The translations under genes and the position numbers were made by a program. From positions 160,001-224,000 of IMG/VR virus record IMGVR_UViG_3300013212_000088: a stretch of DNA of 64,000 nucleotides; one strand, written 5' to 3'. Positions within the stretch are counted from its first letter, which is position 1. Each line of letters begins with the position of its first letter. The DNA comes from a virus. Its lineage: Duplodnaviria; Caudoviricetes. The notes under the pieces are model-generated. The model was not told the origin of the DNA. It saw only the letters and a program-made list of their open reading frames with translations, and did no database searches. Positions 12,199-35,818 of this stretch are shown here, piece after piece.

Positions 12199-12223
12199 TT
12201 CTTTAATAAAGTATTTTTTTCCT
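12199..12223 (-). promoter_or_regulatory. sigmaH-like promoter AGGA-N18-GAA for the scaffold/decoration/MCP operon
   Basis: Minus strand reads GAAGGAAAAAAATACTTTATTAAAGAAAG. Confidence 0.55.
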
Positions 12224-12246
12224 TCTTTAGTTTTAACTTTTACAAT

Positions 12247-12283
12247 AAAATAGGGAACTATTTATTGGATAATTCCCTATTTT
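12247..12283 (-). terminator. Intrinsic terminator after the 1408-aa protein
   Basis: AAAATAGGGAA...TTCCCTATTTT inverted repeat. Confidence 0.65.
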
Positions 12284-12299
12284 TACTATATTTTAAGTA

Positions 12300-32987: not shown

Positions 32988-34089
32988 TATCATCTTTAGA
33001 AACAATTGGCATTAGTAGATGATTAAAGTTACCATGAATTAAGCATAATGACAACTTATCTTCATCAATTTCTTTAATTTTAAACACTAACTCTTCATCT
33101 TCAGTTTTGGAAATACAGTCCATTAAATCTTTATGTAGGACTTGAACTTCACCTGAATTAGTGCTTGAAATACATTCAATCTTATTTTGAGTAGAACCAC
33201 GCTCTTTATCAGAACCAGTGAAAATTAGTGTCTTGTCTTTAAGTTCTATATTTATGAAAGAGTTTTTAGCAACAAGGCCAGCTAATTTTAAAGCCTTAGT
33301 CAATTCTGATTTATTTACTTTAAACTCAGCCTTATCATCTTTGCGGAAAAACTTATTCAAATCTGGATAAGTTTTCTTGTCAATTTGAACAAGTGATAAG
33401 ATTAAAATAGTGTCTTCCCAGGATAGTTTTAAATGTCTTTGTCCTACTTCGAATGTAACTGTATTGTCTTGAAGTAAATTAATTAATATTTCTGCAGTTT
33501 CTTTAGGAATAAAAAAAGATTCAAACTCAGGGCAATTTTCACCAATTTTAATTCTAAACCTTGACATTCTTCTATCATCAAAAGAATATGCGGTTAGATA
33601 TGCAGAATCAAAGTTAAGATAAACTGCATTAATCATACTATCTTTTGAAGTTGAAAATGCAGTGTAATTTAAAGCATGCCAAAGAGAATTACCAGGGACA
33701 TCAAAAACTATAGACTTTGGTATGAAATTAAAAGGTATAAAGTCTGAACCATCATTAGCAAGAACAACACATTTTGCACTTTTATCTCCAAGATGTACTA
33801 TATTTTTATCAGCAGAATAAATCATATTGAGTTTATCTGATGTGTAAATATTAGCAAAATCAGAAGTTAAATTAGCTTCACAGGAAAATGTTTCAAAATC
33901 ACTTCCAACATCTATTTTGGTATTTATTATTTGTTGACAATAATCATTAATTGTTTGCAAATGTAATTGACTATTTTTAGAAAAAAAGTTAAACTCTGAA
34001 TCTGCAGTTCCTTTCATTGAAAGATTGCAAGTGAGTTTAGATTTCTTAAAAAGTTTATTTGCTAAAAATGTATCTATGGATATTTTCAA
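32974..34089 (-). CDS. dnaN: DNA polymerase III beta sliding clamp
   Basis: 371 aa; three-domain pattern, INAVYL, YSFDDRRM, TYPDL, LLMPI C-terminus. Confidence 0.8.
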   Translation of the reverse strand: MKISIDTFLANKLFKKSKLTCNLSMKGTADSEFNFFSKNSQLHLQTINDYCQQIINTKIDVGSDFETFSCEANLTSDFANIYTSDKLNMIYSADKNIVHLGDKSAKCVVLANDGSDFIPFNFIPKSIVFDVPGNSLWHALNYTAFSTSKDSMINAVYLNFDSAYLTAYSFDDRRMSRFRIKIGENCPEFESFFIPKETAEILINLLQDNTVTFEVGQRHLKLSWEDTILILSLVQIDKKTYPDLNKFFRKDDKAEFKVNKSELTKALKLAGLVAKNSFINIELKDKTLIFTGSDKERGSTQNKIECISSTNSGEVQVLHKDLMDCISKTEDEELVFKIKEIDEDKLSLCLIHGNFNHLLMPIVSKDDNEEE

Positions 34090-35081
34090 TGTAATTGCCC
34101 CTGGAACTCAATTTGAATATCTTCATTGTATCGTGAAATATAGTTTATGACTTTAAGCATAAACGTGCCTTCATCTGCGCAACAATTTAAAATACCATCT
34201 TGATAAAAGTTCCAGCTATCATTAACCTGATCAAGAACATCCATCTTATTGACGATAAGCTTTGTTACACCATTCATTTGGCAAGCTGTGTTCACTTCGT
34301 CAATATTTAGCCAGTCGATTTGTCTTGGTCGCCCTGTAGTGGCTCCATATTCTTGACCAATCTCACGCAATTGTTCAAATCGCTCGTCGTCTTTTTGGTA
34401 TCCTTTAGCTCCAACATAGGTAGAATAACACTTGATAACCCCGACAACATCCCGTACTTGCTTAAAATTGAAACCATTGTTTAGTACCGCTCCTACTCCA
34501 GTGTTTGATGAAGTTACATAAGGATAATCGCCAAAGTCAACATCAAGCCAGTAGCCTTGAGCTCCTTCGGCTAAAAACTTCTTAGATGATGAATGGATAA
34601 GGCTATGCATATCGATAAGATATGGTGCAAGTTCTGGAACATCTTTGGCACGAAGGCCTGTGCGACCAACTTTGTCTTTATAACAAGGGCCATTTCCAGT
34701 GCGAGTTGTTCCAATAAAAGTATCTTTGGAATCTTCGTCAATATGTTCTTTGGTAATTATATGTGCGTTTTCTGCTATTTTAAGGATTGATGTGTCAAAC
34801 CCAAATCCTTCAAGATATTCAAGTTCGTCAAATAATTTTTGCGTATTGATAACACAACCATTACCGATGACACTAGGAATGCCATGCAGAACACCACAAG
34901 GAACAAGATGTGTAACAATTTTCTCTCCATTGAGGTAAATTGTATGACCAGCATTTCCTCCACCATTGAAGCGAAATACATAATCATATTCACCATACAT
35001 AGCCATTTGATTGGCTATTTTGCCCTTACCTTCATCGCCATATTGCATGCCAATAACAACATCAACAACTGAATTATCCAT
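34086..35081 (-). CDS. purA: Adenylosuccinate synthetase (short form)
   Basis: GMQYGDEGKGK, GGGNAGHT, EGAQG, YPYVTSS, GATTGRPR, NKMDVL. Confidence 0.93.
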   Translation of the reverse strand: MDNSVVDVVIGMQYGDEGKGKIANQMAMYGEYDYVFRFNGGGNAGHTIYLNGEKIVTHLVPCGVLHGIPSVIGNGCVINTQKLFDELEYLEGFGFDTSILKIAENAHIITKEHIDEDSKDTFIGTTRTGNGPCYKDKVGRTGLRAKDVPELAPYLIDMHSLIHSSSKKFLAEGAQGYWLDVDFGDYPYVTSSNTGVGAVLNNGFNFKQVRDVVGVIKCYSTYVGAKGYQKDDERFEQLREIGQEYGATTGRPRQIDWLNIDEVNTACQMNGVTKLIVNKMDVLDQVNDSWNFYQDGILNCCADEGTFMLKVINYISRYNEDIQIEFQGQLH

Positions 35082-35116
35082 GCATATATTCTACTTCAGT
35101 GTAGAAATATTTGCAA

Positions 35117-35818
35117 CTATTCTTCTGGCTCGGGACTTTCTTTCTTTACTTTACTTTGAATTAATATAATTTCCTGCTGAGAATATGTTATGTATACATC
35201 AGTGGCTTTTTTTCTAATTCTAGTAAGAGCATTATCAACACACTTTGGCGGAACTTGTAAAGAATTAGATATTTCTTTATATGATGAATTAAAACCATAT
35301 TCTGTAAAAATATCTTTCTCTAATGGTGTTAACTTTTGTTTTAATAATTTTGATGTCTGCTCATATTCTTCTCTAATGATAATGTCCTGAACTAAATTGG
35401 TTTCTGGAGATTCATCAAAAGGATTTAATCTATCTGGAATAAAATCAGCTAATGTTTGTAAGTTTCCATCATCACCCAAAATAATTGGTGCATCAAGAGA
35501 AATGGAATCATTCAAAATTGAATTTTTCATTCTTTTAGCTGATGAAATCGCTGTTGCTAAATGTCTTTTGCAAACTAGATTTACACAAAAGTTTTTAAAT
35601 GTAGTGTCTTTTGTTGGATCATAAGAGTTGACAGCTTTGACAACTCCTAATCTAAGTTCTTGTAAGACATCATCTCTGTCTCCACCCAAAATAAAAAAGT
35701 GACTAGCAATTTTCTTTAGATCTGGCTCGACTAATTTGAGCAAGAAATTAAATGAACGCTTGTCACCTTTCTTTGCTTTCTTAACTATATTTACAATTCT
35801 AACTTCTTCTGTAGCCAT
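35117..35818 (-). CDS. sigH: SigH (Spo0H)-like sigma factor
   Basis: FFILGGDRDDVLQE, KRHLATAISSAKRMKNSILNDSISLDAPI, LTPLEK, SYKEIS...KCVDNALTRIRKK closely follow B. subtilis SigH motifs. Start at ATG 35818. Confidence 0.88.
   Translation of the reverse strand: MATEEVRIVNIVKKAKKGDKRSFNFLLKLVEPDLKKIASHFFILGGDRDDVLQELRLGVVKAVNSYDPTKDTTFKNFCVNLVCKRHLATAISSAKRMKNSILNDSISLDAPIILGDDGNLQTLADFIPDRLNPFDESPETNLVQDIIIREEYEQTSKLLKQKLTPLEKDIFTEYGFNSSYKEISNSLQVPPKCVDNALTRIRKKATDVYITYSQQEIILIQSKVKKESPEPEE

Follow-up and report, generated by a model that had tools for sequence, protein, structure and literature searches.

AGG-N18-AGAA, a promoter-like motif before virion genes of a freshwater jumbo phage, and a divergent sigmaH-like factor as its candidate reader

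How are the virion genes of an uncultured jumbo phage switched on, and which sigma factor is in charge of them? The DNA considered here (the window, 64,000 nucleotides) comprises bases 160001-224000 of IMG/VR record IMGVR_UViG_3300013212_000088, which is linear, 261,424 bp long, 33.6% in guanine-cytosine (GC) content and estimated to be 73% complete. The sequencing runs holding this stretch come from lake, river and estuary metagenomes, and no close record emerged when the phage collection was searched for near-identical DNA. The window carries a block of head genes on its minus strand, and an initial annotation had noticed equally spaced AGG[AG]-N18-GAA elements upstream of four head transcription units, together with a gene at 35117-35818 described as a close SigH homologue; it was assumed that host sigmaA drives early genes while a sporulation-type sigma, taken over by the phage, drives morphogenesis. 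The motif is real, strand-specific, spacing-specific, conserved and placed as a promoter would be. Its link to the sigmaH-like protein is plausible and circumstantial, and the reading favoured here, that the motif is a middle/late-class -35/-10 promoter read by this protein, is given a probability of about 55%.

Genes were called over the whole record and 82 sense-strand upstream regions (17.7 kb) were analysed, every 4-mer/gap/4-mer pair being enumerated across them without bias. The pair at the top of this enumeration was AAGG-N18-AGAA, in the register noticed earlier, with 9 occurrences vs 0.73 expected (p=8e-8; 0.08 after Bonferroni correction). When the gap of AGG-Nx-AGAA was scanned from 8 to 30, 13 matches were found at N18 and 0-4 elsewhere, the antisense strand giving 3, and in 2000 dinucleotide shuffles the form AGG-N18-AGAA appeared 1.63±1.27 times with a maximum of 7. 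The looser AGG[AG]-N18-GAA of the initial annotation was seen 10 times vs 2.26±1.53 after shuffling, a count reached by 0/2000 shuffles. Refined on the phage's own genome, the motif is R-M-AGG-W, about 16 variable bases and (A/T)GAA, that is AGG-N18-AGAA; the family consensus is W-W-R-M-AGG-W, then W-rich bases and t-A-GAA. GAA begins 22 nt past the A of AGG, a purine stands at position -2 in 86% of 80 non-redundant family sites, and start codons follow 33-90 nt downstream of the sites.

All six sequences listed in the initial annotation are present on the minus strand, and its four AGG[AG]-N18-GAA sites are genuine, each of them fitting the tighter AGG-N18-AGAA. Scored with a family weight matrix, for which only 6 genome positions reach at least 15, three of the four (12223, 16595 and 24132) rank among the genome's six best matches. 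The first site, P1 (12199-12223, minus strand; AGG at 12223-12221 and AGAA at 12202-12199; score 17.6), precedes a 533-aa gene, a putative decoration gene and the gene of the major capsid protein (MCP; 8976-9830, minus strand; PHROG 2522, 232 bits), which is the last of this unit and is followed by a terminator at 8916-8887. A hairpin read from the sequence at ~12280-12250 stands just before P1. Site P2 (16571-16595, minus strand, score 15.3) lies immediately behind a terminator (16632-16607) and ahead of a 1401-aa protein with an N-terminal prohead-protease domain, whereas P3 (24108-24132, minus strand), with a score of 20.8 the best of the genome, heads a 351-aa gene (22970-24025) and those that follow. 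The fourth site, P4 (27611-27636, minus strand), is a weak candidate: it is an exact AGG-N18-AGAAT, and the orthologue of the following 317-aa gene (26624-27577) in the relative G004 likewise has AGG-N18-AGAAT, but its score is only 5.7 and it lies inside the 3' end of the terminase gene.

The two variants with TAAA in place of the GAA box did not hold up. The AGGA-N18-TAAA sequence at 25480-25505 (minus strand, score 12.0) has ATAA for AGAA, stands 10 nt from a start codon and is absent before the G004 orthologue, while that at 31265 is the 3' arm of an intrinsic terminator hairpin found by a terminator scan (31256-31285, minus strand) and scores 2.1. An exact match at 19618 lies within a gene, scores 7.1 and is lost in the related locus L016, and it was regarded as chance.

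Conservation was followed by a capsid-protein search which recovered 156 IMG/VR stretches, of which 80 loci with 57-99% identity were retained. A spike at N18 was present in every class of capsid identity (66 vs 1-8 at spacings 10-23; 14 vs ~2; 30 vs ~10). Where capsid identity is at least 95%, 25 of 25 loci have the motif ahead of the 533-aa gene and 24 of 24 have it ahead of the protease fusion, and the 18-base spacers vary widely among these close relatives while the boxes persist; such conserved boxes around a diverged spacer read as a clear footprint. P2 is also retained in L016 and in G004, and the G004 orthologue of P3 has AGG-N18-GGAA. In G004, a complete relative of 379 kb and 40.6% GC, 29 matches were counted at N18 vs ~4 at other spacings, and at least nine orthologous gene pairs bear the motif both there and in the present record (the protease fusion, the 351-aa, 1347/2282-aa, PhoH, 341-aa, 292-aa, 789-aa, 152-aa and 153-aa genes). 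The distant relative G009 lacks the exact AGG-N18-AGAA form and has AGG-N18-TGAAT(A), with AGG-N19-GAA counted 21 times vs 1-13, and GAAT(A) is frequent in G009 and G011.

It had been claimed that these sites belong to head genes, and the four head units are indeed marked; the motif is, however, not confined to them. Motif-bearing genes of the record comprise the four head units, a 1154-aa tail/structural gene, a 1347-aa gene, a decoration-/fibre-like gene, PhoH and several genes of unknown function, and the genome-wide survey of upstream regions agreed with the expectation that an enriched motif would precede tail genes too. A label of "middle/late class" therefore seems to fit these genes better than "head-specific", lateness being deduced from the kinds of genes. 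The best sigma70-type promoters precede other genes and seldom share a region with the motif, and no competing sigma70-like promoter was seen in the motif-bearing gaps checked. One such promoter, TTTACA-17-TGgCATAAT (39221-39249, minus strand; combined promoter and terminator scan), stands after a terminator and heads a minus-strand run toward the clamp-loader, SigH-like sigma, clamp and second-sigma genes, which agrees with the earlier statement that metabolic and replication genes show TATAAT-type boxes; good sigma70-type promoters thus precede other genes, the sigma-containing operon included.

The RNA data consist of assembled metatranscriptome contigs, which locate coverage and not start sites. 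In the contigs of four runs the capsid gene is heavily covered, the interval from 9.8 to ~12.4 kb is covered well and that of 12.5-15 kb barely; around P1, contig depth is high between ~12.4 and 9.1 kb, with almost nothing above 12.5 kb. In run X17 the depth is 6-28 over 19.8-24.4 kb and ~0 beyond. This coverage is compatible with promoters in the 12.2-kb and 24.1-kb gaps.

The candidate reader is a divergent sigmaH-like sigma of 233 aa (35117-35818, minus strand) for which SigH models score best: five of them give 104-114 bits, and the next family, generic sigma70-ECF (extracytoplasmic function), gives 54 bits. SigH being the best family was thus correctly called, but "close homologue" was too strong, since these scores are about half of the curated SigH cut-offs (208-414 bits; NCBIfam TIGR02859 / PRK08295) and the protein falls outside the cellular SigH clade. 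By comparison, the SigH of Listeria and of Salimicrobium reach 322-357 bits on SigH models. In Pfam, region 2 passes the cut-off and region 4 is just below it; among solved structures, the best match in sequence is 3mzy, "sigma-H factor", and identity to Listeria SigH is ~32%. About 190 close homologues exist in metagenomes, SigH-like homologues were found in 11/11 large relatives searched, and SigH was the best family in the seven relatives checked. In a tree whose root is unknown, 75 cellular SigH rows form one clade (support 99/86) with the phage sequences outside it, and the protein is accordingly placed, as far as sequences can tell, as an old phage lineage of the SigH family. Despite this distance the region 4.2 recognition helix, K-x-V/I-D-N-A-L-x-R-I/V-R/K-K-K, is found in phage sigmas and cellular SigH; K192, D195, N196, A197, L198, R200 and K204 are invariant in 10 phage sigmas and Listeria SigH, and K-x-V/I-DNAL-x-R is common to the phage sigmas and to the SigH of Listeria, Salimicrobium and Armatimonadota. 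The gene lies between those of the clamp loader (35857-36924) and the sliding clamp (32974-34089) on the minus strand, and an adenylosuccinate synthetase gene (34086-35081) is inserted in this cluster.

The following sequence of events would account for these observations. Host RNA polymerase with its primary sigma would first read the genes behind TTGACA/TATAAT-type promoters, a set which probably includes the replication operon with the sigmaH-like gene between the clamp-loader and sliding-clamp genes. The sigmaH-like protein would next bind the host core polymerase, its region 4.2 helix contacting the AGG box and its region 2 contacting the GAA box two helical turns downstream, and the head, tail and some other genes would then be transcribed from AGG-N18-AGAA promoters. 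We infer, then, that the motif is a promoter, that the genes behind it are late and that the SigH-like sigma rather than another reads it. The sigma is the best candidate reader because box identity and spacing match sigmaH promoters, and also because the sigma of phage G, in whose genome no spike of the motif is seen, has a different helix. As regards the two-tier programme first proposed, its observable part stands, namely a spacing-fixed sigmaH-like motif on structural units and sigma70-type promoters elsewhere; the SigH-like protein as reader is favoured by promoter resemblance and by the conserved helix, but nothing else separates it from two other sigma-like proteins.

Several observations weigh against the favoured reading. 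Genes without a structural role, such as PhoH, bear the motif; one RNA contig spans the 12.2-kb gap, and contigs give no start sites. The base that follows AGG is split about evenly between A and T in the family, and while GAA is invariant, T comes next in 3/13 own sites and in ~25% of family sites. A 53% GC relative within an Armatimonadota contig shows no spike of the exact motif. Finally, the two other sigma-like genes are nearby, and the nearer relatives have them together with the motif; sigma presence or absence across relatives leaves the assignment of the reader unsettled. A clue to a cascade was also looked for in the form of the motif before a sigma gene: AGG-N18-AGAA precedes neither sigma gene in the phage's own DNA or in most relatives, and since it was met only in G004 (second sigma, score 12.7) and neither in the own genome nor in five other relatives, it was dropped.

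Among other explanations the one that survives best, though it is unlikely, assigns the motif to one of these two proteins and leaves the SigH-like factor to serve another gene class. The first of them is a second sigma-70 family factor of 184 aa (31340-31894, minus strand; Pfam Sigma70_r4 51.8 bits, TIGR02937 74.5 bits), whose gene is apparently in the operon of the SigH-like gene and so likely co-transcribed with it. The second is a zinc-finger sigma-like protein of 335 aa (44042-45049, minus strand), a possible third sigma suggested by its fold and by language-model neighbours, which are sigma-like clusters. It has zero matches to hidden Markov models (HMMs); its AlphaFold2 model (predicted local distance difference test, pLDDT, 81) has weak top PDB matches, nearly all of them sigma factors (best E=0.02), and hhalign of its family against a sigma region 4 profile gave a non-significant E=0.055. 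Its N-terminus is region-2-like and its C-terminus region-4-like, with C2H2/CxxC zinc-finger motifs in between, and the protein is conserved, without a Pfam match, across more than 100 metagenome proteins. Both rivals are conserved in all strong-motif relatives (G001-G007), which speaks for them; G008 holds a weak partial match to the 184-aa factor, and neither G009-G011 nor phage G gave a match with this query. In its region 4, however, the 184-aa factor resembles the SigB/F/G and ECF types, whose -35 boxes are not known to be AGG. Moreover, G009 retains AGG...GAAT and a SigH-like sigma, neither rival protein being found there with the queries used, and the 4-mer-pair enumeration of own upstream regions offers no second enriched motif with which the SigH-like factor might be paired instead. 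Which of the three sigma-like genes a relative has or lacks was tried as a discriminator and rejected as uninformative, as distant relatives hold between three and five further sigma-70 family genes.

A less probable alternative, to which we attach little weight, is that an alternative sigma of the host, for example one of the sigmaH family, reads the motif, and that the phage protein reinforces or mimics it or acts on host genes. SigmaH-family sigmas with the same recognition helix occur in Bacillota and in metagenome-assembled genomes (MAGs) of Armatimonadota, and the motif is similar to cellular sigmaH promoters. Against this stands a divergent sigmaH-like lineage found in each of the 11 large relatives searched, which would be hard to explain if the host factor sufficed, and the AGAA box of the clade, in which the lack of a T preference deviates from the cellular consensus. 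The weakest of the explanations, in which a phage activator or repressor binds the motif or the motif acts in the RNA leader, draws on the mere 7 fixed bases and on partial conservation downstream of AGAA in orthologous regions, and it is very improbable in view of two asymmetric boxes at a rigid distance of ~22 bp around a free spacer, strand specificity, a position behind terminators and before leaders with ribosome-binding sites (all classic for -35/-10 elements), and gaps without a competing sigma70-like promoter.

The middle/late promoter reading, if extended to the whole family, leads to a wider and more tentative proposal, which we hold to be somewhat doubtful as it stands: in freshwater jumbo phages of the phage-G-like kind, a sigmaH-family sigma with AGG...GAA promoters may be the switch for morphogenesis throughout the family and from its ancestor on, as one part of a programme of three sigmas, the zinc-finger one among them, and possibly in hosts outside Bacillota. 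More than 150 IMG/VR contigs carry a capsid gene of the phage-G-like clade. If this proposal is true, the sigmaH family has an old phage-borne branch unrelated to sporulation. The suggestions of a sporulation-type sigma and of a switch of the host sigmaH regulon, made in the initial annotation, are without basis because the phage comes from freshwater and there is no sign of a spore-forming host; to label phage genes of this kind "sporulation sigma factor" is misleading.

The closest match to the sigma in a cellular record lies in the first ~0.5 Mb of a 1.36-Mb contig of an Armatimonadota MAG (L152, G012:C5). This part of the contig has 52-54% GC, many matches to phage proteins, a capsid that is 79% identical and the same clamp-loader / sigma / clamp order, and from 600 kb on the GC content is 60-61%. 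It is either an integrated relative of the jumbo phage or an assembly chimera, and as the sole hint of a host it is a possible one. Three other Armatimonadota MAGs (L186, L204, L231) hold SigH-family sigmas with the Bacillota-type recognition helix; two of these pass an NCBIfam SigH cut-off, and the SigH family is therefore not confined to Bacillota.

Some further features of these phages deserve mention. Upstream of the MCP, on the same strand, are genes of the portal, the prohead-protease fusion and the terminase. The portal protein (16653-19031, minus strand; Pfam Portal_Mu, PHROG portal) has a C-terminal endonuclease-like domain (Pfam DUF559 / REase_MTES_1575), and a gene of UDP-galactopyranose mutase (25490-26614, minus strand) is located within the head-gene block. 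Ahead of the 1154-aa structural gene, a tandem repeat of ~11 bp (GTAAACACGTA, 3-4 copies; genome 34972-35054, L005, minus strand) is located between a motif site and the ribosome-binding site. In G004, at loci L111-L113 (~1-60 kb), a long element recurs about 60 times, composed of AAAAATCCCC, ~16 nt and ATCGGATATATAA and ending 5-6 nt before the starts of small genes without a ribosome-binding site. This element looks like a leaderless early promoter class, and it is absent from the present record, which is only 73% complete.

Phage sigma and promoter systems are barely charted in uncultured jumbo phages, and no description of the AGG-N18-AGAA motif or of its pairing with a SigH-like sigma was found in the literature. 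The nearest cultured relative, Bacillus phage G (Donellivirus), resembles the present phage in its MCP (48% identical), in a similar order of head genes and in a sigma-70 family gene located ~22 kb from the MCP gene. It differs in that its sigma has another recognition helix and in that no spike of AGG-N18/19-(A)GAA was seen in 400 kb of its genome. The gene in question (L130:1354-2013; NC_023719 ~45.6-46.3 kb) encodes a 220-aa protein passing Pfam Sigma70_r2 and r4_2, in contrast to a survey of jumbo phages in which group 3, phage G included, is said to lack sigma factors (PMC7824862). Sporulation-like sigmas are also known from other Bacillus phages: SP10 g120, Goe3 g157 and that of Eldridge are SigF/G-like and target the sporulation network of the host (Schwartz et al. 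2022, PMC9429907), and g120 of SP10 was shown to be dispensable for infection (PMC9429907). The factor described here shares with them a best HMM family labelled as sporulation-specific, but it is SigH-like, has homologues in 11/11 large relatives searched and is paired with a genome-wide motif.

Cellular sigmaH promoters have a spacer of 11-12 nt. The boxes of Bacillus subtilis sigmaH are RNAGGAWWW and RNNGAATWW (PMC8510167, citing DBTBS). Common to that system and to the phage are the AGG core, which has a purine two bases before it and is followed by W-rich positions, the GAA core of the -10 box, an equal distance of the boxes, SigH as the best family of the phage sigma and the region 4.2 helix ...DNAL.R..KK. 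The phage sigma departs from it in reaching half of the family cut-off, in its ~32% identity to Listeria SigH and in standing outside the cellular clade; the -10 box of the phage clade is AGAA with no preference for T, and the predicted targets are virion genes instead of transition-state or sporulation genes.

When the SigH-like protein was compared by tblastn (E<=1e-3) with 50,697 phage records, 11 records matched, none of them SPO1-like. Phage sigma factors with promoters of their own are textbook matter for SPO1 and T4. The SPO1 cascade relies on gp28 as the middle sigma and on gp33/34 as late factors, and its middle -35 box is AGGAGA. With SPO1 the present phage would share sigmas redirecting host core polymerase to phage promoters, here a prediction from sequence, as well as an AGG-type -35 box, several sigma genes and early genes presumably under the host primary sigma, although the -10 box of SPO1 differs from that of the motif. 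The genome at hand has two HMM-confirmed sigma genes and one fold-level candidate, and the motif stands before head and tail genes. It can be said that this is an ordinary theme of phage sigma cascades, in which the motif and a divergent sigmaH-like candidate reader in a widespread freshwater family would be new. They constitute a clean candidate sigma-promoter pair, and with the motif, hundreds of metagenomic contigs can be annotated for their transcription units and the timing of their genes.

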